Sequence record: PV730299.1
Direction: 5' to 3' (one strand)
Length of the DNA: 64,000 nt
Origin: a phage
Part shown: positions 1-46,471 of the stretch, one piece after another
Layout of the letters: the number at the start of each line of letters is the position of its first letter
How positions within the stretch are numbered: position 1 is the stretch's first letter
The notes under the pieces: generated by a model
What the model saw: the letters and a program-made list of their open reading frames with translations, nothing else
The model's database searches: none
What the model was told of the DNA's origin: nothing
Made by a program: the position numbers and the translations under genes

Positions 1-1821
1 AAGCTGCGCCTGCTCCAGCTGATGTTCGTCCTTGCTTACCGCACCAAGTCCAACTATGAGGACGGCCTGGGTACTGTGGCTCCGTGGCTGGCCATGTGCT
101 ACTATCGCCTGTACGAGAAGGGGATAGTACCTAAGATCCAGCGTGTATACGATGGTCCGACCGACTTTGAGGGTGCATACGTCATGGATGTGACACCAGG
201 AATCTACTTCTGGGTCTTCTCGGAAGATTTGAACTCCCTGTATCCTCACATCATTCAGCAGTACAACCTCGGTCCAGAGACTATCGTTGGCGACAAACAC
301 CAGCGCCGCGAGATTATTGAGGCTATGTGTGAAGAGCTGGCTGCTCAGATGAATAACATGGCAACGCCGATGCACAAACGTCGGTTGATGAAAGCCCTTC
401 ACGACAAGCTGTTGCGTGCGGTTGATGAACGCCTGCAGGTTGTTGATGAGTTGGTTGCCCTGGGTGAGTTCCACTTTGAAACCCTGCGCCGCTACAACGT
501 GTCGTTCACACCGAACGTTCAATTCTTCAGCAACGAGAAGATGTCGTTCCTGTCTGAAATCATGCGCGGTATCTACAGCGACCGTAAAGTAGAGAAGGCC
601 AAGGGGCTGAAGTACGAGCAGTGGGCTGGTTGGTGTAAAGAGATGTCGAAGGGCGACTTCCATCTTGAGTCTGCCATGAAGTCTCGCTACTATGACCCAG
701 AGTGGTATGAAGAGCACAAGAACATTGATCTTGATGCCCTGACCGAAGTGATGAAGAAGTGGGAAGACCTGGGCGTCGCTCAAGATACCCTTCAACAAGG
801 TCTGAAGATCTTGATGAACGCAGGTTATGGCGCGATCTCAAACGTCTGGTTCAAAGAGTACTTCAACCTCAACATTGCCGAAGCCATCACCACATCCGGT
901 CAGCTGATCAACAAGTGGAACAAGCGTTACACCGATGATTATCTGAACAAGCTGTGTGGTACAACAGGCCAGGACTTCGTCATCGCAGGGGATACCGACT
1001 CCAACTACATCTGCATTGAGCGTCTTGTCAAGCATTTGTGGCCTGATGTTACTGACCATCATGCTATGGTTGATAATATCGACCAATGGATCAAAGACAA
1101 CTACCAGCCGAAGACCAATGAGTGGGCACAGCTTCTGTGTAACACCATGAACGGATTTGAACAGCGCATGGTGTGGGAGCGTGAGGTCATTGCGTCAGCC
1201 GCTGTCTGGCGAGCCAAGAAGATGTATGCCATGGCCGTGTACGACAGTGAGGGTATCAAGTACGAGAAGCCGAAGATCAAGTTCAAAGGTCTGGAAGCCC
1301 GCAAGTCCACCACACCGGAATGGTGTCGTGAGCGTCTTGTCAAGTGCTATGAGAAGATCCTACTCGGCACCGAAGAGGAAGTGCAGACGCTCATCTCCCA
1401 GTACAAAGAGGAGTATATGAAACTCTCTGTAGACGATATCGCCAAGGCGTCAGGTGTGTCCGACATAGAGAAGTGTGTGGCTGCTGACGGATCGTTTATA
1501 TCTGGTGCTCATTTTGCTGCCAAGGCGTGTGTGGGCTACAACCGTCTGGTTGAGAAGAACGAAGATCTGGGTCTACCGATGATCGAGTCGGGTGATAAGG
1601 TACAGATGGTGTTGTTGAAGCCGGGCAACCCGTTTGGGCAGAACTACTTTGCATATCCTGAGTTCTTCCCCGAGGAGCTTGGTCTGGGCAAATGGGTGGA
1701 TTATCAGGCGGCCTTTGAGAAGTCCTTCATTGATCCGATTCAGTCTATCCTCGACGTGGTCGGCTGGTCACACAAGCGCCGTGTGAACCTTCTTGCCATG
1801 ATGCAAAAGAAGAAAGGTTGA
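1..1821 (+). CDS. 43: DNA polymerase, family B (T4 gp43-like), C-terminal part; 5' end lies upstream of the window
   Basis: Frame is open from base 1. Motif B-like KILMNAGYG and motif C VIAGDTDS seen in the translation; overall shape matches the palm/thumb region of T4-type polymerases. Confidence 0.88.
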   Translation, partial: KLRLLQLMFVLAYRTKSNYEDGLGTVAPWLAMCYYRLYEKGIVPKIQRVYDGPTDFEGAYVMDVTPGIYFWVFSEDLNSLYPHIIQQYNLGPETIVGDKHQRREIIEAMCEELAAQMNNMATPMHKRRLMKALHDKLLRAVDERLQVVDELVALGEFHFETLRRYNVSFTPNVQFFSNEKMSFLSEIMRGIYSDRKVEKAKGLKYEQWAGWCKEMSKGDFHLESAMKSRYYDPEWYEEHKNIDLDALTEVMKKWEDLGVAQDTLQQGLKILMNAGYGAISNVWFKEYFNLNIAEAITTSGQLINKWNKRYTDDYLNKLCGTTGQDFVIAGDTDSNYICIERLVKHLWPDVTDHHAMVDNIDQWIKDNYQPKTNEWAQLLCNTMNGFEQRMVWEREVIASAAVWRAKKMYAMAVYDSEGIKYEKPKIKFKGLEARKSTTPEWCRERLVKCYEKILLGTEEEVQTLISQYKEEYMKLSVDDIAKASGVSDIEKCVAADGSFISGAHFAAKACVGYNRLVEKNEDLGLPMIESGDKVQMVLLKPGNPFGQNYFAYPEFFPEELGLGKWVDYQAAFEKSFIDPIQSILDVVGWSHKRRVNLLAMMQKKKG

Positions 1822-1833
1822 TTCAATAAACCA

Positions 1834-1857
1834 AAGGGGGATATAATTCCCCCTGTT
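1834..1857 (+). terminator. stem-loop downstream of the polymerase gene (weak intrinsic terminator)
   Basis: AGGGGG / CCCCCT stem with AT-rich loop ATATAATT, preceded by TTCAATAAA; U-tract weak. Confidence 0.4.
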
Positions 1858-1883
1858 AACCCTTTGACAAACAGGTGATTGAA

Positions 1884-2225
1884 ATGAAACTCAATAAGAT
1901 TCTTCTGGTGTGCGCTCTGGCTTTCTCTACCACTGCGTGTTCCACCCTTCTGGACGTTGCTTCTACTGTAGACCTTGACGCGCCGACGTTCACCAATGAG
2001 CAGGCCGTGTCCAAGATGGAAGACACCATCAAGGCGCATGCAGCACTGGACAACACTACCCCAGGTCCGCTCCAAACTGTCTGCAACTATGACGATTCCA
2101 TCCAGGAAGACGAAACTTACCACTGCATCACCTACGTGAAGCAGGCCTCCGTCGTTCTGTATGCAGATTGTACCGAAGAACAGTGTGTTGCTACAGGCTA
2201 CGATAAAGTTGAGGAAGACAAATGA
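1884..2225 (+). CDS. putative lipoprotein / secreted small protein
   Basis: ATG at 1884 with AGGTGA 6 nt upstream (the track's 1875 start is GTG); N-terminal signal-like hydrophobic segment LLVCALAFSTTAC ending in Cys. Confidence 0.45.
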   Translation: MKLNKILLVCALAFSTTACSTLLDVASTVDLDAPTFTNEQAVSKMEDTIKAHAALDNTTPGPLQTVCNYDDSIQEDETYHCITYVKQASVVLYADCTEEQCVATGYDKVEEDK

Positions 2226-3001
2226 ACAACCTGGTTTGTATCTATGATATGAAATCAAAGGTCGGTGGCCTGTATCGCGTCCTCGTGGATGTTGACCTGA
2301 CGTTGGTCGACAGCCTCTCCCCTTGGGTGCAGTGGTTTAACGAAGAGAACATCGCCGCCGCTGCTATCGCTACGGGGGAACATAAGTCATACCAGTTCCA
2401 GCCGATTACCAAAGAGTGTTATATGTCCCATGCTGGCGACCTGGCTATTCTGATGCGTGAACGTGCGCATCCGGCGTGGCTATACCATGAAGTCCAATTG
2501 GGGATGCACAAACAACGTGTGCCAAGCGGTAACGATCCTATGGACTGGTGGCGTCGCCCTGACTTGTACGCCAAGATGAACCCACTTCCTGGTGCTTACG
2601 AGTTCCTGGTGAATCTGAAGAAGATTCTGCTCGAAGACTTTGACAATGTTGAATTCATCGCGGTGTCGAAGTGCGAGCCGGAACACGAGCGCAGCAAGCG
2701 TCAGTTTGTCTATGATAAGTTCCCTGGTATCTTCAACGGGTTTGTCAGCACCGACGAAAAGCATCTGCTGGCTGGCGATGTCCTGATTGATGACAATCCG
2801 AAGTATGTCGAGCCATGCGGTCTGAACAACATCTTTGTCATCTTTGTTCCTCAGGGCAATTATGAAAAACTGGATCTTTCGAATTCGGAAGACATGCTTT
2901 ATATTAAACCAGTAGAAGGCCAGAATCACTTCGACTTCCTGAACCGCAATATTGTTGAAGTGGTTAACCGCCTGATTAGTCATTATCAATACGTCCGATA
3001 G
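2222..3001 (+). CDS. HAD-superfamily phosphatase, 5'(3')-deoxyribonucleotidase-like
   Basis: HAD motif I-like VDVDLTLVD near the N-terminus and a C-terminal LIDDNP motif typical of the NT5C nucleotidase family; ATGA overlap with the upstream gene. Confidence 0.45.
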   Translation: MNNLVCIYDMKSKVGGLYRVLVDVDLTLVDSLSPWVQWFNEENIAAAAIATGEHKSYQFQPITKECYMSHAGDLAILMRERAHPAWLYHEVQLGMHKQRVPSGNDPMDWWRRPDLYAKMNPLPGAYEFLVNLKKILLEDFDNVEFIAVSKCEPEHERSKRQFVYDKFPGIFNGFVSTDEKHLLAGDVLIDDNPKYVEPCGLNNIFVIFVPQGNYEKLDLSNSEDMLYIKPVEGQNHFDFLNRNIVEVVNRLISHYQYVR

Positions 3002-3010
3002 GAGGACATC

Positions 3011-3316
3011 GTGCAAGAACAATCCAAGTTTGGGGAAACCCCAGACAAGCGTTCCGGTGATAGCGACATGGATAGCGTGATTAACCATGTGAACAACTTC
3101 ATTCGTCAGCAGGAGACTCCAACTCCTATCGGTGCAGCCAAGGCTCTTCATGATGTACTGGTGAAGATCGGCCAGCGCTCTGAAGCGGATGAAATCTTCT
3201 ATAACTTTGAAGACCAGTATAAAGTGAAGTTTGAAGAAAACGGTCGTCCGCAGGTTGCTGTGTTCTGGGCACCTTGGCTGGGCGGCGTGAGCTGGCGTAT
3301 TGAGGATGCTGTGTAA
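3011..3316 (+). CDS. hypothetical protein
   Basis: GTG start preceded by AGGAGG at 2999-3004; stop overlaps the next start (ATGCTG). Confidence 0.5.
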   Translation: MQEQSKFGETPDKRSGDSDMDSVINHVNNFIRQQETPTPIGAAKALHDVLVKIGQRSEADEIFYNFEDQYKVKFEENGRPQVAVFWAPWLGGVSWRIEDAV

Positions 3317-4002
3317 TGCTGTCGCTCTACCTGATCACGAATCTCGTCAATCATAAATTCTATATCGGTGTCACCTCAGAACCGGATAGGCGGTTGGCTG
3401 AGCATAAGTGTGGTCAGGGGAGCATTGCATTACAACGAGCGTTCAAGAAATACGGTGAAGACCAGTTCAAGTTTGAAGTTCTGTTCCGAGGGAAAGATTC
3501 GGTTATCCTTGAGATAGAGTCTGAACTGGTCTGCCAGGAGATCCTTGACTCTGGGTGGTGCTACAACATGGTCGTCGGGGGTGGGAAGCCTCCATTGGCC
3601 ACGCCAGAGTCATCCGCAAAGAGCGCCGCAACCCGCAAACGTTTGATCGCTGAAGGTAAGATTAAACCTCCACCAAGACTCACCCCTGAAGCACAAGCCA
3701 GAAAGGGTAAGATCATAAGCAAATTGATGTCAGAAGGGAAGATCCCCAAACCACCAAGACCTTCCTCTGAATCTCAAACGCGTGGAGGGGGAACTAGGAA
3801 GAGGCTGCATGCTCTTGGTCTGATAGACATTGGTCCTGGTCGCGATGAAAAGATTTACAAATGGCAGCACAAAGATGGTCGCATCGTTGAGTTAAGAAGA
3901 TGCGACATGGAACTTCAATATGGCCTCCCTTCCGGTAATATAACGAATCTCTTGAAAGGTAGGGCTAAAACATGTCTCGGTTGGAGAATATTAAATGGCT
4001 AA
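3316..4002 (+). CDS. GIY-YIG homing endonuclease
   Basis: N-terminal LYLITNLVNHKFYIGVT (GIY...YIG signature) followed by two basic repeats GKIKPPPRLTPEAQARKGK / GKIPKPPRPSSESQTRGGG resembling NUMOD-type DNA-binding repeats. Confidence 0.75.
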   Translation: MLSLYLITNLVNHKFYIGVTSEPDRRLAEHKCGQGSIALQRAFKKYGEDQFKFEVLFRGKDSVILEIESELVCQEILDSGWCYNMVVGGGKPPLATPESSAKSAATRKRLIAEGKIKPPPRLTPEAQARKGKIISKLMSEGKIPKPPRPSSESQTRGGGTRKRLHALGLIDIGPGRDEKIYKWQHKDGRIVELRRCDMELQYGLPSGNITNLLKGRAKTCLGWRILNG

Positions 4003-4912
4003 AATAATTGTAGTGAAAGGCACCTCGGCCACGGGCAAGGGTACGAGAGTGGTCCAGTTCATCGAATGGCTGCGCACTAAGCTGGAGCCTACCGAACTGA
4101 CCTACACCGTTGGTGACAAGACTCGCCCGTTTGGCCTGAAGTTCGGAGAGCTGAAGTTAATCTTCGTTGGGCAGTACACCGTGTCTAACAAATCCGGTCT
4201 GGCTTCCTGGACTTCAATGGATGCAATCCATGCTGCTACAGGCTCAGGCGATATTGCTCGTGATCTAATCAAGTGCTGGTTGGTTCAGGGATACACTCTG
4301 GTGTGTGAGGGCGAACCTCTCATGCTATCGGACAAATGGCGTCCTGAATGGATGTTCAAGAACTATCCGATTGAATCATTGGCGCTGCTGTACTTTGCGT
4401 ACCCCGACCGCTATCAGTACGATGCTCGTATCCGTGGTCGATCTGGTAAAGAAGCAGGGAACTCCGGCTGGTCGCGCAACGAATCTTACTACAAGGAGTT
4501 TGAGAAGTCGAAGGCCGAAATGCTGGCGCTGGGCTTCACTGTGGCTGTTGATGATTACAGCGGACAGGATATCCTGTATAAATCACCGGATGCCAACACC
4601 AAGGAGTTCACAACCAAACAGCAGTCTGAGTTGGCGGTACTACCGTTCGACGCCCCGCTGTGGGTTGTGGGTAATGCGATTTGTCATCAGATCCGCTCTG
4701 AACTGCGTGGTGTTGACATGCACACCAAAGACTTCTACGCCTACTGTGAAACCAATCCGATGACTCGTGAAATCGGCGGCCAGGATCCTTTGGCGCACAG
4801 AGTCCCTGAGAAGCCGCAGAAGGCATCCAAAACTAAAACCAAGGCGAGCGCCCAGCCAGAAGCACCGAAGGCAGCGTCGCGCTCTCTCCTTGACCTGATG
4901 AAGAAGGGGTGA
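3995..4912 (+). CDS. P-loop NTPase, kinase-like; function unassigned
   Basis: Walker A-like GTSATGKGT at residues 9-17 and a Walker B-like LVCEGE; 305 aa. No match recognised to T4 Pnk, Tk or gp1. Confidence 0.5.
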   Translation: MAKIIVVKGTSATGKGTRVVQFIEWLRTKLEPTELTYTVGDKTRPFGLKFGELKLIFVGQYTVSNKSGLASWTSMDAIHAATGSGDIARDLIKCWLVQGYTLVCEGEPLMLSDKWRPEWMFKNYPIESLALLYFAYPDRYQYDARIRGRSGKEAGNSGWSRNESYYKEFEKSKAEMLALGFTVAVDDYSGQDILYKSPDANTKEFTTKQQSELAVLPFDAPLWVVGNAICHQIRSELRGVDMHTKDFYAYCETNPMTREIGGQDPLAHRVPEKPQKASKTKTKASAQPEAPKAASRSLLDLMKKG

Positions 4913-5112
4913 TCATGAAACGGTTGTCTAATTATCTGTTGTTCATTGGTCTGGTTATGGCAGCCGTTTCAATGTGTACTGCCCTAGCCTATCATTTCAC
5001 CCCTCTGGACTTAACAACCTCAGAGAAGTTGAACGTGACTGTGATGTACTGTATTGGCGCGGTGATGTCTATCGGCGCTGCTGGTTACAAAATATTCAAG
5101 GAACCAAAATGA
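4909..5112 (+). CDS. small membrane protein
   Basis: Two hydrophobic helices (LLFIGLVMAAVSMC and MYCIGAVMSIGAAGY); ATGA overlaps with neighbours on both sides. Confidence 0.45.
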   Translation: MIMKRLSNYLLFIGLVMAAVSMCTALAYHFTPLDLTTSEKLNVTVMYCIGAVMSIGAAGYKIFKEPK

Positions 5113-5489
5113 AAATTCAAATCCCTCGCGATGCTGTGGCTGTTGCGATCGACTACACCGGAAACGCCAAGCACATTACTGCCGTGCGCCTGATTCCTGA
5201 AAAGAACTGCGTCATCCCTCAGTTCCAACTGAATGCCAATCCGTCGTCCAAAGACTTTGGCAAGTGGTTGCAGGCTGCTCCGTTCCGTACCCAGACGAAC
5301 GCTCAGATGTTCATCTCGAGTAAGACCCACACCGCAGCCCGTCTGTGGTTCGTGACCGCTGACCGTCGCTTTGTCGATATGTGGGAACGTCCGATGGGGT
5401 TCGTGAAGCCGGAAGATATTCAGCTGGCTCCTGAGCCTGAAGCTGTGGCTCCTGAAGAGGAAGCGAAAGATGAAAATCAAGCAGGTTGA
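5109..5489 (+). CDS. hypothetical protein
   Basis: In-frame ATG at 5109 overlapping the upstream stop (ATGA); the track's longer ORF from 4974 would overlap the upstream gene. Confidence 0.5.
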   Translation: MKIQIPRDAVAVAIDYTGNAKHITAVRLIPEKNCVIPQFQLNANPSSKDFGKWLQAAPFRTQTNAQMFISSKTHTAARLWFVTADRRFVDMWERPMGFVKPEDIQLAPEPEAVAPEEEAKDENQAG

Positions 5490-5655
5490 TTTTATCTTCA
5501 TGATGTTGATGTTCGTTATCTTTACGGTTTCGCTGGTCGGCGTCATGGTCACAGAAGGAGTGCAACAGCGCCCATTCTTGGTGATATGTCCTGTATCTAT
5601 CGCCACTTTCTTCTATCTGGCGTTCCGTGTTGAACTCGGGAGTAAAATCGGATGA
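5470..5655 (+). CDS. small membrane protein
   Basis: 61 aa with two predicted transmembrane segments; overlaps the downstream start by 4 nt. Confidence 0.4.
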   Translation: MKIKQVDFIFMMLMFVIFTVSLVGVMVTEGVQQRPFLVICPVSIATFFYLAFRVELGSKIG

Positions 5656-6887
5656 CACATCTGTCTAAAATGCCGCAGGGATATAAAGCCCCTGAAAAAT
5701 GGAAATACCCGATTGATCTGGCAATAGATTATCGTAAGCCAGAAAATCGCATGTACCTACTCAAGGCTTGGGTGGAGGCGCTGTCCTACACCGAAGAGCA
5801 CAACCAGCAGATGCGTCTGATGGACTATGCGATCGAAGTCACTGAAGGTATCAGCCTCGAACAGAAAGTCGAGCGCAAGATCTGGATGGCATTCCTGTGG
5901 GGTTGTTGCTATAACGCCGTCGGGCCGTGGACGATCTACAGTGAGTTCCCTGTACCACCCCAGTCCAAAGAAGGGATGCAGCGCTTCTCTGATTGGTATA
6001 ATCTGAACTTTGATCGCATGCGATTCGATACCGACTGTCGCTACCGCAAGTCCAAGATGATTCCGTGTGTTCAGTCCTATATTGACTGGCTGGCTGGCCG
6101 TACTCAATATGACGCTTTCCGTGGGATGTTGGTGTGCATCGATAAGACAGAACAATTCACCCAGCTGTGGGACACGGCGATGTCCTGGAAATACTTCGGT
6201 CGCCTGAGCGCCTGGAACTTCCTGGAAGCCCTGAACATGGTCTTCGGGAACGAATACACCATTGACGTCCCTGGCTTCATGCTGCGTGATCGTGATGGAA
6301 GCGAGTCCAACCGTAATGGCGCGGCGTTCTTGTCCAACCGTGACGATTGGGTGACTAAACACGGGAAGAAAAAGATCAACGGTTGTCCTATCACGGATGA
6401 AGAGTGTGACATCCTTGAGGCCGACCTTGAGCAGGCGTTCCAGGATTGTGTGGCTGAGTTCGGGCACCTGACGTTCATCAACCGCCTGAACTTTGAAACC
6501 TCCGGCGCTTGTTGGCTGAAGAAATTCTTCCGACTGAAGAATACCCGTTACATCGGGTGGGACGCAGAGCGTACCTGGGATGAGATAGACTACATGGAAC
6601 GCGTCTGGCCTGAATACTCCTGCGCAGAGCTCTGGGAAGCCCGTTCGCTCTGGCTGCCAGATACCCTGTTATGTGAAAAGGCTCCTGCAGGGCACGTTCC
6701 AGGCGTCCAGAAGTGGAAGATGCCTGTATTCTTTGAGACTGGTGTTCCTCTGCATATCTGGCACCTGCAAAAGGGTACGCGCTGGGAACCATCCGAGGTA
6801 TGTACGAACCTGAAGATGCCTGTGCGCAAGGTTGAGGACAAGTCGAAGTCCAGCAGCGTCAACCTCATGGCACTCTTGAAACGCTGA
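5652..6887 (+). CDS. hypothetical protein (411 aa), function unassigned
   Basis: Long uninterrupted ORF, translationally coupled to the upstream gene; no motif recognised. Confidence 0.65.
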   Translation: MTHLSKMPQGYKAPEKWKYPIDLAIDYRKPENRMYLLKAWVEALSYTEEHNQQMRLMDYAIEVTEGISLEQKVERKIWMAFLWGCCYNAVGPWTIYSEFPVPPQSKEGMQRFSDWYNLNFDRMRFDTDCRYRKSKMIPCVQSYIDWLAGRTQYDAFRGMLVCIDKTEQFTQLWDTAMSWKYFGRLSAWNFLEALNMVFGNEYTIDVPGFMLRDRDGSESNRNGAAFLSNRDDWVTKHGKKKINGCPITDEECDILEADLEQAFQDCVAEFGHLTFINRLNFETSGACWLKKFFRLKNTRYIGWDAERTWDEIDYMERVWPEYSCAELWEARSLWLPDTLLCEKAPAGHVPGVQKWKMPVFFETGVPLHIWHLQKGTRWEPSEVCTNLKMPVRKVEDKSKSSSVNLMALLKR

Positions 6888-6894
6888 TATAAAT

Positions 6895-6917
6895 ATCCTC
6901 GCCTATAAAGCGAGGAT
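6895..6917 (+). terminator. stem-loop after the 411-aa ORF
   Basis: ATCCTCGC / GCGAGGAT 8-bp stem with loop CTATAAA, followed by ATTATC; overlaps a TATAAATA motif at 6888-6895. Confidence 0.3.
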
Positions 6918-6923
6918 ATTATC

Positions 6924-7091
6924 ATGTTACAAGATCTGCTGGTTTATGCGCTTCCTGGCGCGGTTGTCGGCTTCATTGCTGGTGCTCTGGTCTTCCGTAA
7001 ACACGCGCAAGATGGTGAAGTGATTGTTCAGAAAGGCAAAGAGATTCTGGACCAGATCGAAGCCAAACTGGAAGAGCTGAAGAAAAAGTAA
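6924..7091 (+). CDS. small membrane protein (55 aa)
   Basis: Below the ORF-track size cut-off; ATG at 6924, single hydrophobic helix LVYALPGAVVGFIAGALVF, followed directly by a strong intrinsic terminator. Confidence 0.4.
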   Translation: MLQDLLVYALPGAVVGFIAGALVFRKHAQDGEVIVQKGKEILDQIEAKLEELKKK

Positions 7092-7117
7092 TCTGACTGG
7101 GGTTGCTTCCTTCAATA

Positions 7118-7158
7118 AAGGGGAATGGGTTATTATTAGCCCATTCCCCTTTCTTTTT
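7118..7158 (+). terminator. rho-independent terminator
   Basis: AAGGGGAATGGG / CCCATTCCCCTT stem, loop TTATTATTAG, then TCTTTTT; preceded by TTCAATAAA. Confidence 0.7.
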
Positions 7159-7259
7159 GCAAGAATATACATCATGGCAATGCAACGAATTGAAGATATG
7201 TCTCTACTCAACATGGAAGCGACTTTTGGCGCTTCCGTTATCGTCATGGGAGAATCCAA

Positions 7260-7478
7260 ATGATCAAGAACACCCGAACAATGAAGCGCGCAATCGCTCA
7301 CTGTGTCCATTCAGTGGCAACTATTATGTTCCGCCACCACATCACATTTGATGAAGCACTGGACCCACAGTACCATGAAGAGCGTTGGGATTTGTTGTTA
7401 AAGAACGGCGCCAATCCTGAGCATAAAGATCAACTCCTTGGTATGACCAAGGCGCAGCTCGTCGGTGAATCCAAATGA
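7260..7478 (+). CDS. hypothetical protein
   Basis: 72-aa ORF coupled by ATGA to the downstream membrane protein gene. Confidence 0.4.
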   Translation: MIKNTRTMKRAIAHCVHSVATIMFRHHITFDEALDPQYHEERWDLLLKNGANPEHKDQLLGMTKAQLVGESK

Positions 7479-8590
7479 TCTACCTCCTGTTTGGTGTGCC
7501 ATTGGTACTGGCTATCCTGTTTGTGACCTACCACCGCAAGACCCATGAGCCGAAAGAGACTCTGATAGCGACCGCGATTGTAGTGGTGCTATCCTGTCTG
7601 ATTCAGGCGGGGACTTATGCTGCGTTCTCCCTTGGTAGTTCAGGGGATGTTGAGATCCTGAACGGGTACGTCACTGCAAAGGAGCGGAATGAGGTGAGCT
7701 GTGAGCATTCATATGAATGCAACTGTTACTACACCACATCTTGTACAGGTTCAGGAAATAACCGATCTTGTACACAAACGCGTCATTGCAGCACATGCTA
7801 TGAGCATTCATATGACGTGGACTGGGATGTGTTGACGACTGTCGGTAATCTGACGATTGACCGCATTGATCGTCGCGGCCTTGGTCAGCCCCCGCGCTGG
7901 GCGCAGGTTCAGATCGGCGAACCCGCAGCCCGTGAGCATTCCTACATGAACTATGTGCTGGGTAACAAGGACTCTCTGTTCTCTCGCTCGGACCAGCAGT
8001 TTGCTGAGCGCTTCAAAGACAAGATTCCGAAGTATCCCGAAGTCTATGACTACTATCGCGTCACTCGTGTACTGAATGTGTCTGGTCTGGCGTTACCGAC
8101 CACATACTGGAACGACTATCTGAACAATACTCTGAAAACATTAGGCGCTTCACGTCAGGTCAATATCGTCTGGGTTGTGACTTCCGGTCAGCCAGTTGAA
8201 TACTTCCAGGGCTTGGTCTATGCTTGGGATGGTGGTAAAAAGAACGACGTTATCGTCGTGACCGACATCAACAAAGACCTGAAGATCAACTGGGGTAAGA
8301 GCACTTCGTTCGCTGATGGTATGCATAACCGTGAACTCCACTCTCGCAATGGCATGGCTCTCACAGGCCACGACATGGGTGTCGGTGTCATGGCTGATGT
8401 TGTCGCTAACATCACCAAAGGCTACAACCGCGTTGAGATGAAGGAAATGGAGTACCTGAAGTGGCGGGAACTCAAGACCTGGGAAGTTGTGATTGTTGTT
8501 CTGCTAGGCTGTCTACCGTTCACCGCAATTTTCATATTACAGCGAATGGAGTACAATGGTGGCCGTCGTCGTTATCCGTTTAATTTTTAA
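7475..8590 (+). CDS. Cys-rich membrane protein
   Basis: Two N-terminal and one C-terminal hydrophobic helices; Cys-rich segment CEHSYECNCYYTTSCTGSGNNRSCTQTRHCSTCYEHSY in the predicted external domain. Confidence 0.55.
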   Translation: MIYLLFGVPLVLAILFVTYHRKTHEPKETLIATAIVVVLSCLIQAGTYAAFSLGSSGDVEILNGYVTAKERNEVSCEHSYECNCYYTTSCTGSGNNRSCTQTRHCSTCYEHSYDVDWDVLTTVGNLTIDRIDRRGLGQPPRWAQVQIGEPAAREHSYMNYVLGNKDSLFSRSDQQFAERFKDKIPKYPEVYDYYRVTRVLNVSGLALPTTYWNDYLNNTLKTLGASRQVNIVWVVTSGQPVEYFQGLVYAWDGGKKNDVIVVTDINKDLKINWGKSTSFADGMHNRELHSRNGMALTGHDMGVGVMADVVANITKGYNRVEMKEMEYLKWRELKTWEVVIVVLLGCLPFTAIFILQRMEYNGGRRRYPFNF

Positions 8591-10504: not shown

Positions 10505-10852
10505 ATGAGTTCTATTGAACAGCTGATCACCCCACAGTATGTGTACTCCAACATTGTTGAGCACCTGCGCTCACAGTTGAACGTGGGAACCCTGAGCAGC
10601 ACTGACCTGAAAGATCTACAAATCGTTGAAGTCGAAGTGGCGGCCTTTGGTTCTCGCTATCACTTCAATGTGGAATACACGCGTGTAGAAGAGCAGCAGT
10701 CCTCTATCATCGCGCTGGCTACTCCAGTCAACCCACGCAAAGAGCCTGTGTCGGTCACTCGCACCATCATCGGCTATCTGGAAGAGAAGTTGGAACCTGG
10801 TGCCCAGCGCCCAACATTCGACTTCCAGGCGCGATTTGCCACCGAAGATTGA
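10505..10852 (+). CDS. hypothetical protein
   Basis: 115-aa ORF with GAGGA upstream; followed by the terminator at 10867-10891. Confidence 0.5.
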   Translation: MSSIEQLITPQYVYSNIVEHLRSQLNVGTLSSTDLKDLQIVEVEVAAFGSRYHFNVEYTRVEEQQSSIIALATPVNPRKEPVSVTRTIIGYLEEKLEPGAQRPTFDFQARFATED

Positions 10853-10866
10853 TCTGAACAAAGCCC

Positions 10867-10891
10867 TCAGTCGAGGGCTTTTTCAATTGAA
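10867..10891 (+). terminator. rho-independent terminator upstream of rIIA
   Basis: GCCCTC / GAGGGC stem, loop AGTC, then TTTTT. Confidence 0.7.
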
Positions 10892-10958
10892 GACACCCAC
10901 CGTATTATACCCACTCAACCAATATGTTCCCCTTTGACATTGATAGGATTTCTATACT

Positions 10959-13715
10959 ATGAAAATGCGCAAGTCCGAGCACTTTATCCGCTCGTCGTCT
11001 TCCATTCAGGGGCAGGCGTTCAACGTTAAAATGAACGATAAGATGTTTGAGACTCTGTTCTCATCATTGTATCGTTACAAAGAGGCTGCAGCCCTGCGCG
11101 AAACCGTCTGTAACGCCATCGACTCCCATGGCATGCGTGATCGTATGCACCGTGTGATGGCATCCCACTACGCGCCTCTCACTCCCCCTCCTGCCCGCCA
11201 CAGCAAATACCTTGCACCGAAGGGTAAGCAGGTTGTTGTGCATCTACCTGATGACTTTGAGCCATGGCTGGAAATCCGTGATTACGGCATCGGTCTGCCA
11301 CTTGAGAAGATCATTGGTGAGCCTATCCCAGCACAGGAAGATGAGGTGCTGCTGGAAGGCAACATGGTGGTCAAGGAAGATGAGATCCCTGACTCAGCTG
11401 AGGTCATCGGCGTGCCTGCGTTCTATAATGGTGGTCTAGTGTTCCGTCGCGAAGATGGTGAAATCATTCGTACGCCTGGGTTGTATACCACTCTCTTCCA
11501 CAGTACGAAGGAAGAAGATGATGATCAGATTGGGGCATTCGGTCTTGGCTCCAAATCACCATTTGCGGTATCGGATTCGTTCACTGTGGAAAGCCGCATG
11601 GACGGTAAACTCCATCGCTTCCTGATGTACCTGAATGCCAAGCGCATCCCGACTGTTGATCTGATCACCAAAGATCTTGAAACCCGTGATCCTAAGCCGG
11701 AAGACACCGATGAGTTCAACGGCATGACGGTGAAGATCCCGGTGAAGAACGCTCGCTTCTCCGCATTCTCCGATGAGCTGGTTCGCCTTGGTCGTGTTAT
11801 ACGCCCTGAACAACGTCCAATTGTTGAGAACGCTTCATACCGCTTCGGCTGGGAAGATATCAGTTATGAATTCAAGGTCAATAACACATACATCCAGCCG
11901 AAAGGCCAGGGGAACATCCATTATGCTGTAATGGGTGGCGTGTCGTACCCGATTGACCTGGACCAGCTGGACCCGGACACTGCTTCCATCATGAGCAAGT
12001 TTCCATCGTCCTATACGTTCTTCGAACTCGGCTCGCTGAACGTACCACCGTCGCGTGAAGACCTTTCATATGACGAATTCACGCGTGAGACGCTCTCTGA
12101 GGAGTTTAAGGGCACCGCCAATGCAATCTTGACAGAAAAGATGCGTGACCTGGAGCTGGCGTGTAAGCGTGGTCCTCTTGCCCTGTATATGGAGAAGGTA
12201 AAACTGAGTGAAATGTTCGGCAGTGGGTTCCGCAAGATGGTTGAAAAGGAATACCCGGCAGACAAGCGCTTTCATGATTCATATTACCGTTACCCGCTGC
12301 CTGTTGAGATCGACCGTGACTATGACCACACCGCGCCGTTCAATGAATTGTCATCGCCGTTCTCTATGGAGATCTTCTATGACTGGGGTGAGTCCAGTAA
12401 TTTGACCATTTCAGAAATCCAGAAGTGGATTGATCGCGGCCAGCATGTTACTGTGGTGATCGAAGATAGTGTTCGTGCTCGTAACCTGAAGATCAAGCAG
12501 CTGAAAGATACAGGGACGATAGTCATCGTGGCCAAGCCGAACACATCCTATGTCACCAAGCGCAACCAATCTAAGGACAACCCTGCGTTCAAGAATTCTC
12601 AGGCTCTCTATGATTTCTTTGAAACTTGGATTGGTAAAGAAGAAACGACGGTTGATTATCTGTGCTTCGCCGACAAGTTCGTCGATTGGCTGAGTGCGGT
12701 GTTGGAGCCTGCTGAAGTCAAGTTCATGAACGAACTGTCGTATGTCACGCCCCCGGTCACCAAAGACCCTGGCCTGTTTCCGTTCACGCGCAGCAACTTC
12801 GACATATACCAGTATGAAGAACTAACGGGCGACCAGATCTCAGATATCATCAACAAGGGCGAGCGCATCGTCTATATTGAGGTGTCTGGCCATGCGTGTA
12901 TCCATCAGGTGATGGACAGAACGTTGACGACTGCGGCGGCGCGGGGTATTCGTAAATCTCTGTATGAGCACGCAGTCAGTGTCGACGATGAAGGCAAGCC
13001 AGTGTACATCAGCGATATGTTGAACGTTCACAACCGAATCTTCTTGGCTCGTCGTAAATCCGTGCCAATGATGAAGAAGTTCCCAGAGGTCTTCATACCG
13101 ATCGATGAAATCCTGAAGATCATGTTGGAAAACGTGAAGCCTATGATGGAGCGCGATAGCGCCAGGCGCATACTGGAATCATACCGCCGCATGCGCCTTG
13201 GGGCGGATCGATTAAAATACGGGAGCCATCTGGTTCATCAGGCGTTTGGTGATGTTGAAGACGATCGTTATGGCAAATTGGTCAGCCGTTACAACAAGTT
13301 AATGAAAGTTGTGGACGATATCTTGGATGAGCAGACTGTACGTCATTACCAAAGCCTGGCGAAAGCCCCGGTTTCAATCAATGACAAGCGTCGATTTAGC
13401 CATTTCCAGGACACAATACATTCTCTTAACGTGAATTTGTACGCCAACGAGCGTGACGAAAAGATCTTCCGTTCAGAACATCAGATGCTACAGATCTTTG
13501 AATGCGCTTCGGATGTGTTGCGGTTTCATGGATTTACACCGTTTGATATATCGAGGACTCCGTCATTGAAAGCAAGGCGGGAAAACCGATTGACCATCGA
13601 GCGTCATCGTGTTGTCCGGTTCTTGAAAGAGAATTACAAACCAAGCGCCCTGAACCCGATTGAAAAATCTTCGGATTACTTGGACGTTATTTCAAATTCC
13701 ATTATCAGGGCATAA
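10959..13715 (+). CDS. rIIA: rIIA-like protein (GHKL-type ATPase fold, membrane-associated lysis-inhibition/exclusion protein)
   Basis: N-terminal FETLFSSLYRYKEAAALRETVCNAIDSHG and AFGLGSKSPFAVSDSFTV align from memory to T4 rIIA (FKILSSDLYTNK...MIDAH and GGFGLGSKSPFSYTDTF). Confidence 0.85.
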   Translation: MKMRKSEHFIRSSSSIQGQAFNVKMNDKMFETLFSSLYRYKEAAALRETVCNAIDSHGMRDRMHRVMASHYAPLTPPPARHSKYLAPKGKQVVVHLPDDFEPWLEIRDYGIGLPLEKIIGEPIPAQEDEVLLEGNMVVKEDEIPDSAEVIGVPAFYNGGLVFRREDGEIIRTPGLYTTLFHSTKEEDDDQIGAFGLGSKSPFAVSDSFTVESRMDGKLHRFLMYLNAKRIPTVDLITKDLETRDPKPEDTDEFNGMTVKIPVKNARFSAFSDELVRLGRVIRPEQRPIVENASYRFGWEDISYEFKVNNTYIQPKGQGNIHYAVMGGVSYPIDLDQLDPDTASIMSKFPSSYTFFELGSLNVPPSREDLSYDEFTRETLSEEFKGTANAILTEKMRDLELACKRGPLALYMEKVKLSEMFGSGFRKMVEKEYPADKRFHDSYYRYPLPVEIDRDYDHTAPFNELSSPFSMEIFYDWGESSNLTISEIQKWIDRGQHVTVVIEDSVRARNLKIKQLKDTGTIVIVAKPNTSYVTKRNQSKDNPAFKNSQALYDFFETWIGKEETTVDYLCFADKFVDWLSAVLEPAEVKFMNELSYVTPPVTKDPGLFPFTRSNFDIYQYEELTGDQISDIINKGERIVYIEVSGHACIHQVMDRTLTTAAARGIRKSLYEHAVSVDDEGKPVYISDMLNVHNRIFLARRKSVPMMKKFPEVFIPIDEILKIMLENVKPMMERDSARRILESYRRMRLGADRLKYGSHLVHQAFGDVEDDRYGKLVSRYNKLMKVVDDILDEQTVRHYQSLAKAPVSINDKRRFSHFQDTIHSLNVNLYANERDEKIFRSEHQMLQIFECASDVLRFHGFTPFDISRTPSLKARRENRLTIERHRVVRFLKENYKPSALNPIEKSSDYLDVISNSIIRA

Positions 13716-37923: not shown

Positions 37924-38139
37924 TCACTTCCTCATCAGTGAGAGCAGATTGACCGTAGCCGGGCGCGCATCAGGGGCGTAGAAGACGTCCTGAGAGTGCC
38001 TCTTACAGCACGGGCAATCCTTCGTGGCGATTACACAGGGAGCCTTGTCCACGGCAAATCCAGCGGCTTCGGCTTCCTTCACAGTGGTGAATGGCATGTA
38101 GGCACTTGTGCCCTGCCCTCCGCATGAACATTCCATCAA
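37924..38139 (-). CDS. small Cys-rich protein
   Basis: 71 aa with CSCGG ... CPCC. Confidence 0.4.
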   Translation of the reverse strand: MMECSCGGQGTSAYMPFTTVKEAEAAGFAVDKAPCVIATKDCPCCKRHSQDVFYAPDARPATVNLLSLMRK

Positions 38140-44203: not shown

Positions 44204-44769
44204 TTACGTTCTCCGTAGAATTTAACGAACGGCTCCCAACCATCAAATGGATTGAGGAATTCGTAGTCCACTTTCATTTGGTCAATGAAAGCCTCTATAT
44301 CGTCCTCTATGATACCAGCACGGTCGGCCTTTGAAATACGGGTGATAGGACATTTCGTACTCAGCGCCCATTCATATTCCTGAGGGGTACGCAGATCGCT
44401 CACGATATAATGGACGTGGGGGTTCTGCTCTACCAGAGGAAGCTGGAAGCGCTTGAAGAATGCCAGGAACAGATCGGGTTGTACGTAACGCAAGCCCGTA
44501 TCGCTGCCTAGATGAAGCCAGATCTGCCGTGGAGTTAAGCCCTTGGGGTTATCAGGGTGCACGTAAGGAACGTCCTTCACGGCATCCTCTACCTCCGCTG
44601 GGAGCCATGGGTAGATGTAGTTGGCTACACGGCGCAGTTCATCCGAGAACGAAAGGCGCTGGATGTCCATATCACCCTGTAAGTGGTGATAACTGATCAG
44701 GGACTCCAAACAGAAGTCCTTACCGGAGCGCTTGCGCCCCGTAAAGAATTCAAGATTTGGATACATCAT
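44200..44769 (-). CDS. 1: deoxynucleoside monophosphate kinase (T4 gp1-like)
   Basis: N-terminal P-loop FTGRKRSGKDF resembling the T4 gp1 GVKRSGKDT loop; 189 aa. Confidence 0.6.
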   Translation of the reverse strand: MMYPNLEFFTGRKRSGKDFCLESLISYHHLQGDMDIQRLSFSDELRRVANYIYPWLPAEVEDAVKDVPYVHPDNPKGLTPRQIWLHLGSDTGLRYVQPDLFLAFFKRFQLPLVEQNPHVHYIVSDLRTPQEYEWALSTKCPITRISKADRAGIIEDDIEAFIDQMKVDYEFLNPFDGWEPFVKFYGERK

Positions 44770-45812
44770 ACTACACCTTCCAGGAACTTAGGATCAATGA
44801 TCTTGCGGTCAACCGGGGAATGGGTGAGCGCGGTGTTCAAGCCATGATCCTGAATCAGGTCCAGGTTAATGAGCTTTTCGTTCAGTTTGCAGTGCAGACA
44901 GTACGCCATCTGTACAATCAGGCCGCGATCCGCATCGTATTCCTTCAGGTGAGCAACCACAGTTTCCCACGGGCTACCGATATCACAGTGATGAAGCACA
45001 CCAGTGAACAGATTGCGGATATGGTTCTGGTTGGTCACGTTCGTGAAGTGAATCATGGAGTTGATGAACCCAGCTTCTACTTTGGTGTCCTTCGTGATCT
45101 TGCCCAGCTGCTTCTGGCTGACTTCATTGTTGTAGTAATGAAGATTGTTAGAGAATAGCTTGTACTGACCGACATCAACACCCAGCACCCGAGCAATCAC
45201 TTCCTGAAGAATAGAGAACTCAATGAAGTTAATTGAACTCATCCCCCACAGAACATCCTGTGAGCGATTGATGACCGTCAGGTTCAGACGACCTTCAACG
45301 ATGGCGAATAACAGAGCCAGGTTACACACCATGTCCTTGGTCTTCGCTTCGCCGCTCTCGCTGAACTTCGCCAGACCAGCATCCGAATCTAGAGCCGGGT
45401 CATAGATGGTGAGGTACGCCTGGCGAGTGTTTGGGTTCTTACGCAGGCGGTTGATAACGCTATCCAGCTGGTCATGGGCGTACAGACGCGGACCATAAGC
45501 AGCTCGCCATGTTACCCCATCATCCGAAAAGTTAGCAGCGCGAGGCAATACGCGTGACAGGAACTTTATGTCGTTGCGGCCTGACAACACCCAGAAGGTC
45601 TCGCCGATGGCAGCGATAGCCGATGAGTTGCGACCTTCAACGGAGAGCCAGCGGTCACGGATGTCGGCGACGGTTATGGTCACGCCATCAAGGAAGCGGG
45701 TGCTATCAGTATTGATTTCAGCATTACCAGGATCAGATTCGATCCCGAATTCACGGATAGCCAAGACAGCCTGCTTCAGCATGTCATTGTTGTTAATTGC
45801 TTTGATTTCCAT
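44766..45812 (-). CDS. thymidylate synthase family enzyme (ThyA or dUMP hydroxymethylase-type; not a dCMP hydroxymethylase)
   Basis: Catalytic block VCNLALLFAIVEGRLNLTVINRSQDVLWGMSSINFIEF aligns to the ThyA C...QFYV...YQRSxDVFLGLPFN region, with Asn (not Asp) at the pyrimidine-specificity position; HYYNN as in ThyA H.Y.N; 348 aa with a C-terminal extension. Confidence 0.75.
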   Translation of the reverse strand: MEIKAINNNDMLKQAVLAIREFGIESDPGNAEINTDSTRFLDGVTITVADIRDRWLSVEGRNSSAIAAIGETFWVLSGRNDIKFLSRVLPRAANFSDDGVTWRAAYGPRLYAHDQLDSVINRLRKNPNTRQAYLTIYDPALDSDAGLAKFSESGEAKTKDMVCNLALLFAIVEGRLNLTVINRSQDVLWGMSSINFIEFSILQEVIARVLGVDVGQYKLFSNNLHYYNNEVSQKQLGKITKDTKVEAGFINSMIHFTNVTNQNHIRNLFTGVLHHCDIGSPWETVVAHLKEYDADRGLIVQMAYCLHCKLNEKLINLDLIQDHGLNTALTHSPVDRKIIDPKFLEGVV

Positions 45813-46471
45813 CAGATACTCCCAAAATCACGACAGAGGAATGCCATCACAGCCTGGTCTACTGTTAGGCCGTGAGACTTCATCATACCCGCAGCCACCG
45901 TAGGGAACAAGCCTTTATGTCGTTGACGATGGTCATGAACTCTCTCCCACTTCTCGACCACCAGACTTTCATTGAAGTCCACACCACCGTTACGTGATTT
46001 AACGCGGGAGATACACGTTTCAAGGGGAGTGTCCATAAAGAGCACAACCAATTCACGTGGTGGGCGTGTCAGACGGGGGATCCAAGAACTCAATAATGTG
46101 GATGGAATGATACCTTCGAAAATCACATCATATTTCAAGTATTCTGGTTGGTCAGCAATAGACAACGCGAACAACATCTGCTCAGTGTCCTTCAGGGAAT
46201 CAACCCCCTTGGACTTCGACTTGTCATATTTACCGATACAGACCACGTTGAACGAAGGACAGACAGTCAGCATGACCTTGCCGTTATGGGTCACGACATA
46301 CGCCTGAGGATCCCTCTCCGCCAGCTGAGACGGCACAGTGGATTTACCGCTACCATTGGAGCCTTTGACGTAGTAGATTTGCCCTCGTGCTGGGTAGATC
46401 CCCTTTACGACGGGTGGTTTAAAGAATGTGTGGACGGGGCGCTTCATCAGCCCCTTCAGGGAGTAGGACAT
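45812..46471 (-). CDS. P-loop kinase, function unassigned
   Basis: Walker A GSNGSGKST; 219 aa; translationally coupled (shared base) to the thymidylate-synthase-family gene. Confidence 0.55.
   Translation of the reverse strand: MSYSLKGLMKRPVHTFFKPPVVKGIYPARGQIYYVKGSNGSGKSTVPSQLAERDPQAYVVTHNGKVMLTVCPSFNVVCIGKYDKSKSKGVDSLKDTEQMLFALSIADQPEYLKYDVIFEGIIPSTLLSSWIPRLTRPPRELVVLFMDTPLETCISRVKSRNGGVDFNESLVVEKWERVHDHRQRHKGLFPTVAAGMMKSHGLTVDQAVMAFLCRDFGSI

Follow-up and report, generated by a model that had tools for sequence, protein, structure and literature searches.

Orthologues of two consecutive DNA-level enzymes of thymidine hypermodification in an Agtrevirus-like phage share a C-terminal peptide with the DNA polymerase

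What is the function of two proteins of 305 and 411 amino acids that are encoded, close to each other and in the same direction, downstream of the DNA polymerase gene of phage PV730299.1? The stretch of this phage that we analyzed, here referred to as the window, comprises 64,000 nucleotides (nt), and coordinates refer to the whole window unless another sequence is named. A first-pass annotation had described the two proteins as an unassigned P-loop kinase-like protein and an orphan, and speculated that, if the phage modifies thymidine, they could provide a DNA kinase and a pyrophosphorylase-type transferase. The labels "unassigned" and "orphan" do not hold, as both proteins match curated Pfam families far above threshold, whereas the speculation on function was right. 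We consider it very probable that the two proteins carry out successive steps, both at the DNA level, in the thymidine hypermodification of Ackermannviridae, and we supplement this assignment with the proposal that both enzymes dock on the sliding clamp. The pair itself is already known, since close orthologues have been characterized experimentally in phage ViI; it belongs to a conserved machinery and by itself adds nothing to knowledge. The only unreported detail is that both enzymes share their C-terminal tail with the DNA polymerase.

In ViI-like phages, approximately 40% of deoxythymidine is replaced by 5-(2-aminoethoxy)methyl-deoxyuridine (5-NeOmdU), and lysates containing five ViI proteins, gp67, gp160, gp226, gp243, and gp247, reconstitute this base on DNA that contains 5-hydroxymethyl-deoxyuridine (5-hmdU) (Lee et al. 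2018, PMC5889632). Both gp67 and gp243 phosphorylate 5-hmdU in DNA, gp243 yielding 5-phosphomethyl-deoxyuridine (5-PmdU) (Lee et al. 2021, PMC8989533). Purified gp247 attaches L-serine to the phosphorylated base to give O-serinyl-thymidine (O-SerT), in a reaction that proceeds via an exocyclic C5 methylene and for which a conserved Cys and a neighboring Glu are essential; the pyridoxal phosphate (PLP) enzyme gp226 then decarboxylates the serine adduct (PMC8989533). A 2024 review describes conservation of the pathway genes throughout Ackermannviridae (PMC11721090).

The window DNA is 96 to 97% identical to that of Escherichia phages AV101 and LHE287 and 91 to 92% identical to that of Shigella phage Ag3 and Salmonella phage SKML-39. 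All four phages belong to Ackermannviridae, Ag3 is the type species of Agtrevirus, and Ag3 and SKML-39 appear in the 2018 list (Table 1) of ViI-like hypermodifying phages (PMC5889632). By DNA identity, the source phage is an Agtrevirus-like member of Ackermannviridae.

Identity of the kinase and the transferase

The listing of open reading frames (ORFs) bore out both frames, and the following features define the pair.

3995..4912, + strand: 5-hmdU DNA kinase 2 (HMUD2), orthologue of ViI gp243, 305 amino acids (Pfam PF18747; 84% identity to ViI YP_004327565; P-loop kinase fold predicted)
4019..4045, + strand: Walker A motif (P-loop) GTSATGKGT, kinase residues 9-17 (alignment of 30 homologues)
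4295..4315, + strand: Walker B-like strand TLVCEGE, kinase residues 101-107 (invariant E105, G106, and E107; beta strand predicted at 101-105)
5652..6887, + strand: amino acid:DNA transferase (AADT, formerly aGPT-Pplase clade 2), orthologue of ViI gp247, 411 amino acids (Pfam PF18724 ADDT; 88% identity to YP_004327568)
6495..6512, + strand: transferase catalytic motif E282-T283-S-G-A-C287 (invariant E282, T283, and C287; hhalign to PaMx11 gp46)

The 305-amino-acid protein matched Pfam PF18747 (HMUD2, "5-hmdU DNA kinase 2") with an E value of 8.5e-158 and 524.6 bits (cutoff, 25). The match covered the full length, protein residues 1-304 aligning with positions 1-298 of the 298-position model. 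The Walker A sequence and the hhhhE-like strand pointed out by the first-pass annotation were found at residues 9-17 and 100-107 (YTLVCEGE), respectively. Among 30 kinase homologues, G9, S11, G14, K15, G16, E105, G106, and E107 were invariant and T17 was nearly so, while Walker A position 12 varied between G, A, and S. This position is Ala in the window and Gly in ViI gp243, with which the kinase shares 84% identity over the full length, the P-loop and the acidic motif, the genomic position, and the type of C-terminal tail. An AlphaFold2 model with a mean predicted local distance difference test (pLDDT) score of 84 adopted a P-loop fold resembling nucleoside monophosphate kinases; its best PDB matches in Foldseek were guanylate, adenylate, and NRK kinases, with probabilities of up to 0.9 and weak E values (3e-3). 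Judged by homology, the protein is 5-hmdU DNA kinase 2, the orthologue of gp243.

The 411-amino-acid protein matched Pfam PF18724 (ADDT, "Amino acid:DNA transferase") over residues 49-292 with an E value of 6.5e-60 and 203.2 bits (cutoff, 26.2). With ViI gp247 it shares 88% identity, an equal length of 411 residues, the catalytic Glu/Cys motif, the C-terminal tail, and synteny. It had been described as having no recognizable motif; in fact it contains the catalytic E-T-x3-C motif of the family, and E282, T283, and C287 were invariant in two alignments of 30 and 31 sequences, with homologues down to 39 to 41% identity. Replacement of either the Cys or the Glu by Ala inactivates ViI gp247 (PMC8989533). 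Pseudomonas phage PaMx11 gp46 (PUGT, a 5-PmdU glycinyltransferase; PDB 8Z2M and 8Z2N) matches the same Pfam model, and a profile-sequence alignment by hhalign placed E282, T283, and C287 of the window protein on E243, T244, and C247 of gp46, which are active-site residues in the crystal structure (PMC11472151). The AlphaFold model of the window protein (pLDDT, 90.3) retrieved 8Z2M and 8Z2N as the first Foldseek matches with a probability of 1.00, and the predicted structure conforms to the all-helical, helix-hairpin-helix glycosylase-derived fold of PUGT. By orthology, the 411-amino-acid protein is the AADT that corresponds to the serine:DNA transferase gp247.

Two of the checks that the first-pass annotation had proposed for its speculation supported it: hidden Markov models of the 5-hmdU DNA kinases and of the transferases matched the two proteins (PF18747 and PF18724), and structure prediction with fold search led to 8Z2M and 8Z2N for the transferase and to a P-loop kinase fold for the kinase. 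Neither protein matched an NCBIfam model, and a phmmer search of PDB chains gave no match for either. Sequence and profile searches of PDB chains missed 8Z2M; recognizing the relationship to gp46 required Pfam, hhalign, and the fold search. Identity between gp46 and the window protein is only about 11%, and the latter is longer by approximately 50 N-terminal and 120 C-terminal residues, the tail included. Whereas gp46 attaches glycine through an N-linkage, the window protein would, by orthology, attach serine through an O-linkage. In a weak hhalign alignment (E value of 0.047), the invariant L185 and N189 of the window protein aligned with W146 and K150, with which gp46 binds glycine. L185 and N189 belong to the segment G183-R184-L185-x-x-W188-N189, in which every named residue is invariant throughout the serine-transferase clade. 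This segment may determine donor specificity, that is, serine O-linkage versus glycine N-linkage.

The order of genes is likewise that of ViI. The series polB, orf237, orf239 (NT5C), orf240 (DUF7254), the kinase orf243, small ORFs (orf244 and orf245), and the transferase orf247 is common to the window, ViI, and Ag3, and the Ag3 layout equals that of the window exactly, including a homing endonuclease gene and a third small ORF. The kinase gene lies 740 bp upstream of the transferase gene. HMUD2 and ADDT are encoded by immediately neighboring genes in the genomes of Vibrio phage 207E48.1 and Pseudomonas phage Cygsa01 and also in a metagenomic relative (L010); in Erwinia phage Bue1, the two genes occur in the same gene block.

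Place of the pair in the hypermodification pathway

The window also holds a dUTPase gene and, adjacent to each other, the genes of a gp67 orthologue and a thymidylate-synthase homologue.

44766..45812, - strand: thymidylate-synthase homologue, candidate dUMP hydroxymethyltransferase supplying 5-hmdUMP (Pfam Thymidylat_synt, E value of 5e-17)
45812..46471, - strand: 5-hmdU DNA kinase 1 (HMUD1), orthologue of ViI gp67, without the C-terminal peptide (Pfam PF18748, E value of 4e-109; 89% identity to ViI gp67)

The thymidylate-synthase homologue scored far below the NCBIfam equivalog cutoffs for thymidylate synthase, and an association of such a homologue with 5-HMUDK has been described (PMC5889632). 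The two window kinases, compared with each other, gave a weak alignment centered on the P-loop (E value of 0.004). We therefore rejected a recent duplication of HMUD1 and HMUD2 and regard them as distant paralogues. The orthologues of gp226 and gp160 fall outside the window, and synteny places the gp226 locus upstream of its start. The Ag3 orthologue of gp226 lies at 10577-11833 of the Ag3 sequence (L003), and its PALP match is below threshold, as is that of ViI gp226 itself.

Read onto the window, the ViI pathway would proceed as follows. The thymidylate-synthase homologue would make 5-hmdUMP, and 5-hmdU would enter the DNA during replication. HMUD2 would use ATP to convert 5-hmdU within DNA to 5-PmdU by phosphorylation of its 5-hydroxymethyl group. 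The AADT would then flip the base out, and Cys287 would attack C6 so that the phosphate leaves and an exocyclic C5 methylene forms, to which the side-chain hydroxyl of free L-serine would add, yielding O-SerT. The PLP decarboxylase encoded upstream of the window, the gp226 orthologue, would yield 5-NeOmdU, and this base would protect the DNA from restriction enzymes. The DNA of the source phage is thus expected to resist many of them.

Our own evidence for this assignment consists of homology, orthology, conserved catalytic residues, fold, and synteny, and several considerations weigh against it. The chemistry assigned to the window enzymes is carried over from experiments on the ViI orthologues; completeness of the pathway in the source phage is extrapolated from relatives, with gp226 and gp160 outside the window; and serine as the donor, together with the O-linkage, is taken solely from the 88% identity to gp247. 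Moreover, a 30-sequence profile of the transferase clade, run against PDB chains, missed 8Z2M and returned only a chance match to a Rab protein.

Two other identities have to be considered. It is extremely improbable that the 305-amino-acid protein is an ordinary guanylate or thymidylate kinase acting on free nucleotides, even though phrog_4409 is labeled "guanylate kinase", RefSeq gives the same label to the ViI and Ag3 orthologues, and guanylate kinases top the Foldseek list of PDB matches (E value of 3e-3). These labels are automatic, and the fold matches are weak (template modeling scores of 0.3 to 0.4 and about 11% identity), reflecting the fold common to P-loop kinases. The protein lacks an NCBIfam kinase match but matches HMUD2 over its full length, its 84% identical orthologue gp243 phosphorylates 5-hmdU in DNA (PMC8989533), and the kinase gene adjoins the transferase gene in several lineages. 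The guanylate kinase identity was rejected on the strength of the HMUD2 match, the activity of gp243, and the neighboring transferase. For the 411-amino-acid protein, an AADT that uses a nucleophile other than serine would produce a thymidine modification unlike that of ViI. Donors do vary within the family, being glycine for M6 gp51 and PaMx11 gp46, putrescine for PhiW-14 gp109, and serine for ViI gp247 (PMC8989533), and the specificity determinants of the serine clade are not established. Such a departure nevertheless appears very unlikely, given that the protein is 88% identical to gp247 and retains all clade-invariant positions, that the related Agtrevirus Ag3 keeps an orthologue of the PLP enzyme gp226, and that the reported conservation of the pathway genes extends across the family (PMC11721090).

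A C-terminal peptide shared with the DNA polymerase

Both enzymes end in a short peptide behind a disordered stretch, and peptides of the same type end two further proteins encoded in the window.

22..1821, + strand: 3' part of the family-B DNA polymerase gene, whose 5' end lies upstream of the window; protein C-terminus RRVNLLAMMQKKKG (Pfam DNA_pol_B; synteny with ViI and Ag3)
4877..4909, + strand: kinase C-terminal peptide SRSLLDLMKKG behind a disordered basic linker, proposed clamp-binding motif (predicted structure; same motif on the DNA polymerase end)
6855..6884, + strand: transferase C-terminal peptide SVNLMALLKR behind a disordered linker, proposed clamp-binding motif (predicted structure; motif analysis)
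37924..38139, - strand: 71-amino-acid Cys-rich protein adjoining the DNA ligase gene, C-terminus ATVNLLSLMRK (phrog_4789; shared C-terminal peptide)

In the kinase model, residues 277-297 had pLDDT values below 50 and were followed by a short predicted helix (298-303); in the transferase model, pLDDT was below 50 at residues 388-411, with a helix predicted at 405-409. Polymerase (RRVNLLAMMQKKKG), kinase (SRSLLDLMKKG), transferase (SVNLMALLKR), and 71-amino-acid protein (TVNLLSLMRK) thus end alike. We searched the 479 six-frame ORFs of at least 40 amino acids in the window for the pattern [NS]L[LM][ADS][LM][LM] and found four occurrences, all at the extreme C-termini of these four proteins, compared with 0.02 matches in composition shuffles.

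The tails were then compared between lineages of phages that encode related modification enzymes.

ViI: VNLL-type tail on polymerase, gp243, gp247, and a 70-amino-acid protein; on gp160 in a variant form (..GSVNLLDRLKKPE)
Vibrio phage 207E48.1: ..K(R/K)LW tail on polymerase, HMUD2, ADDT, and HMUDK_hel
Pseudomonas phage Cygsa01: ..S(V/L)xDFF or ..VxDLF tail on polymerase (RKASVMDFFS), HMUD2, ADDT, HMUDK_hel, and an unannotated Cys-rich ORF by the ligase gene
Delftia phage PhiW-14: ..LGxFF-type tail on polymerase gp34 (..AKLGAFFV), kinase gp37 (..GLGGFFKG), putrescine transferase gp109 (..GLGSFFR), gp72 (..TTLAQFAP), and gp33 (..SLGGFAAT)

The peptide differed between the four lineages (enteric, Vibrio, Cygsa01, and PhiW-14) and yet was common to the polymerase and the modification enzymes within each. 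Apart from the polymerase and the modification enzymes, the lineage motifs selected nothing but the small Cys-rich protein encoded next to the ligase, and that in two genomes; cross-lineage motif searches gave 0 matches. The tail is absent from ViI gp67 and gp226, which we examined as well. In two lineages, PhiW-14 and Cygsa01, gp33 also carries the lineage tail; the gp33-like protein of Cygsa01 ends in ..ASLTTLFG, and the late-sigma-like protein of this phage has ..SIFDAFF near its end. No shared tail of this kind was present on gp46, gp49, or the polymerase of PaMx11, whose genome, in the part examined, has no annotated clamp gene.

In phage T4, the DNA polymerase gp43 binds the gp45 sliding clamp through its C-terminal tail, EKASLDFLFG (PMC6212786), gp33 and gp55 have tails that serve as clamp-binding motifs (PMC7892883), and the DNA-modifying alpha-glucosyltransferase copurifies with gp45 (PMC13216743). 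The window peptides resemble those of the T4 clamp clients (the gp43 tail, gp33, gp55, a ligase loop, and the alpha-glucosyltransferase) in being short, hydrophobic, attached by a flexible linker, and of the type found on the cognate polymerase, and the alpha-glucosyltransferase, itself a DNA-modifying enzyme, sets a precedent by binding gp45 (PMC13216743). They differ in that clamp binding in the window is predicted from sequence, that the enteric motif VNLLxLMKK is unlike the T4 motif LDFLF, and that gp33 of the ViI/window lineage does not clearly share the peptide.

A tether to the sliding clamp is suggested because the tail of the enzymes covaries with that of the polymerase and is found also on gp33 in two lineages. 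It fits further because the enzyme genes lie near clamp and clamp-loader genes: HMUD2, ADDT, and HMUDK_hel (gp160 type) adjoin these genes in Cygsa01 (PP179332, 28636-35918) and in the metagenomic relative (L010, 8385-17020), and ViI gp160 is encoded approximately 3 kb from the ViI clamp gene (87432-92264). On balance, we lean toward the proposal that, in phages with a T4-type replisome, HMUD2, AADT, and HMUDK_hel (gp160) are clients of the clamp whose C-terminal peptide coevolves with the polymerase tail. The peptides of kinase and transferase would then probably dock on a gp45-type clamp, and modification would take place on freshly replicated DNA. Two facts count against this proposal. The tail pattern was defined after the peptides had been seen, so that the shuffle figure alone proves little and the comparative data carry the weight, and the gp33 tail of the ViI/window lineage (..ARLIKDALKSKKLV) has no clear match to the polymerase-type tail.

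The same gp33 tail, together with the departure of the enteric VNLLxLMKK from the T4 LDFLF, would fit a different role for the peptide, namely, binding of another partner, such as a single-stranded DNA-binding protein, a helicase, or a compartment or scaffold protein, or service as a degradation or localization tag. We consider such a role less likely. The peptide occupies the extreme C-terminus of a family-B polymerase, which is the position of the clamp-binding tail in T4 and RB69 (PMC6212786), and the polymerase tail of Cygsa01, RKASVMDFFS, resembles the EKASLDFLFG of T4. The same tail type recurs on gp33 of PhiW-14 and Cygsa01, and the late sigma factor of Cygsa01 has a similar peptide close to its end; in T4, both gp33 and the late sigma factor are known to bind the clamp (PMC7892883). 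Furthermore, the PaMx11 homologues, from a phage with no clamp gene annotated in the genome part examined, have no tail, and both in Cygsa01 and in the metagenomic relative the modification genes cluster with those of the clamp and the clamp loader.

If the clamp proposal is true, the modification enzymes would sit on clamps that remain on newly replicated DNA. This could explain why these phages retain a second kinase without a tail (gp67/HMUD1), and perhaps also the way in which modification is linked to replication in time and space. The coevolving tail offers a testable hypothesis, according to which the hypermodification of bases after replication involves a physical link to the replisome; such a link has been suggested for the T4 alpha-glucosyltransferase. 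The clamp is not mentioned in PMC5889632 or PMC8989533, nor did a full-text literature search on clamp and hypermodification bring up such a mention, although coverage was incomplete and an earlier notice is possible.

The 71-amino-acid protein that shares the peptide is Cys-rich and zinc-ribbon-like (CSCGG...CPCCKRH; phrog_4789). Its Cygsa01 equivalent (PP179332, 109399-109710, - strand), which bears the Cygsa01-type peptide, is missing from the GenBank annotation.

Neighboring genes and public annotation

The remaining features around the pair are as follows.

2222..3001, + strand: NT5C/HAD-like 5'-deoxynucleotidase homologue, equivalent of ViI orf239 (Pfam NT5C, E value of 1.6e-8)
3011..3316, + strand: DUF7254 protein, equivalent of ViI orf240 (Pfam PF23912, E value of 1.4e-51)
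3316..4002, + strand: free-standing GIY-YIG (SegD-like) homing endonuclease, between the equivalents of orf240 and gp243 (Pfam GIY-YIG, phrog_19446)
4909..5112, + strand: 67-amino-acid protein with two hydrophobic segments, equivalent of Ag3 orf244 (phrog_4514, E value of 1.5e-34)
5109..5489, + strand: 126-amino-acid conserved protein, equivalent of ViI orf245 (phrog_4163, E value of 7.3e-68; syntenic in ViI and Ag3)
5470..5655, + strand: 61-amino-acid small membrane protein with two hydrophobic segments, equivalent of Ag3 orf246 (phrog_7943, E value of 5.5e-44)
7117..7152, + strand: terminator-like hairpin, 16-bp stem followed by a T run, closing the rightward gene block

The upstream neighbors, a homing endonuclease and a HAD-like nucleotidase, are those named by the first-pass annotation, which had also noted correctly that the 411-amino-acid frame is tightly coupled to its predecessor (a 4-nt overlap, 5652 versus 5655). 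It had counted two small ORFs between kinase and transferase, but there are three, each with a PHROG match of its own. The Ag3 equivalent of the 67-amino-acid protein is annotated with two transmembrane domains. The 61-amino-acid ORF separates the orf245 equivalent from the transferase gene in the window and in Ag3; in ViI, by contrast, no such ORF is annotated and orf245 overlaps gp247 directly.

A scan for promoters and terminators found no excess of promoter-like sites over shuffled sequence; the hairpin at 7117-7152 alone stood out. It is the sole strong terminator-like site in 1800-7600, lies downstream of a 55-amino-acid ORF (6924-7091), and probably marks the end of the rightward block starting after the polymerase gene.

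Several public labels are wrong and need correcting: "guanylate kinase" for the gp243 type, "hypothetical protein" for the transferase, and "terminase small subunit" for the gp67 type. Set against the biochemistry of 2018 and 2021, the RefSeq labels are outdated; the gp67-type kinases concerned are those of the window (45812-46471, - strand), ViI (Vi01_061c), PaMx11 (gp49), and PhiW-14 (gp37).

ADDT homologues also occur on marine phage contigs of approximately 30 to 35 kb, where the gene follows those of a Tet/JBP dioxygenase and a 180-amino-acid P-loop protein (L005, 5860-9077; L006, 256-2746); in L005, a ParB_N protein precedes this series. The stretches examined contained no thymidylate-synthase homologue, and the C-terminal tail was absent. 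These contigs match the ParB-dependent T-dioxygenase class of PMC13229309.

The GIY-YIG endonuclease gene that directly precedes the kinase gene in the window is absent from the ViI site. A gene for a SegD-like GIY-YIG homing endonuclease lies immediately 5' of HMUD2 in the window (3316-4002), in Ag3 (L003, 19322-20008), and in the distant Vibrio phage 207E48.1 (L007, 6486-7223). The window and Vibrio endonucleases share 50% identity overall and are nearly identical in their last approximately 25 residues. In the metagenomic relative, endonuclease and kinase form a single in-frame fusion of 537 amino acids (L010, 8385-9998), and several homologues of 495 to 532 amino acids, together with phrog_15209, suggest further fusions of this kind.

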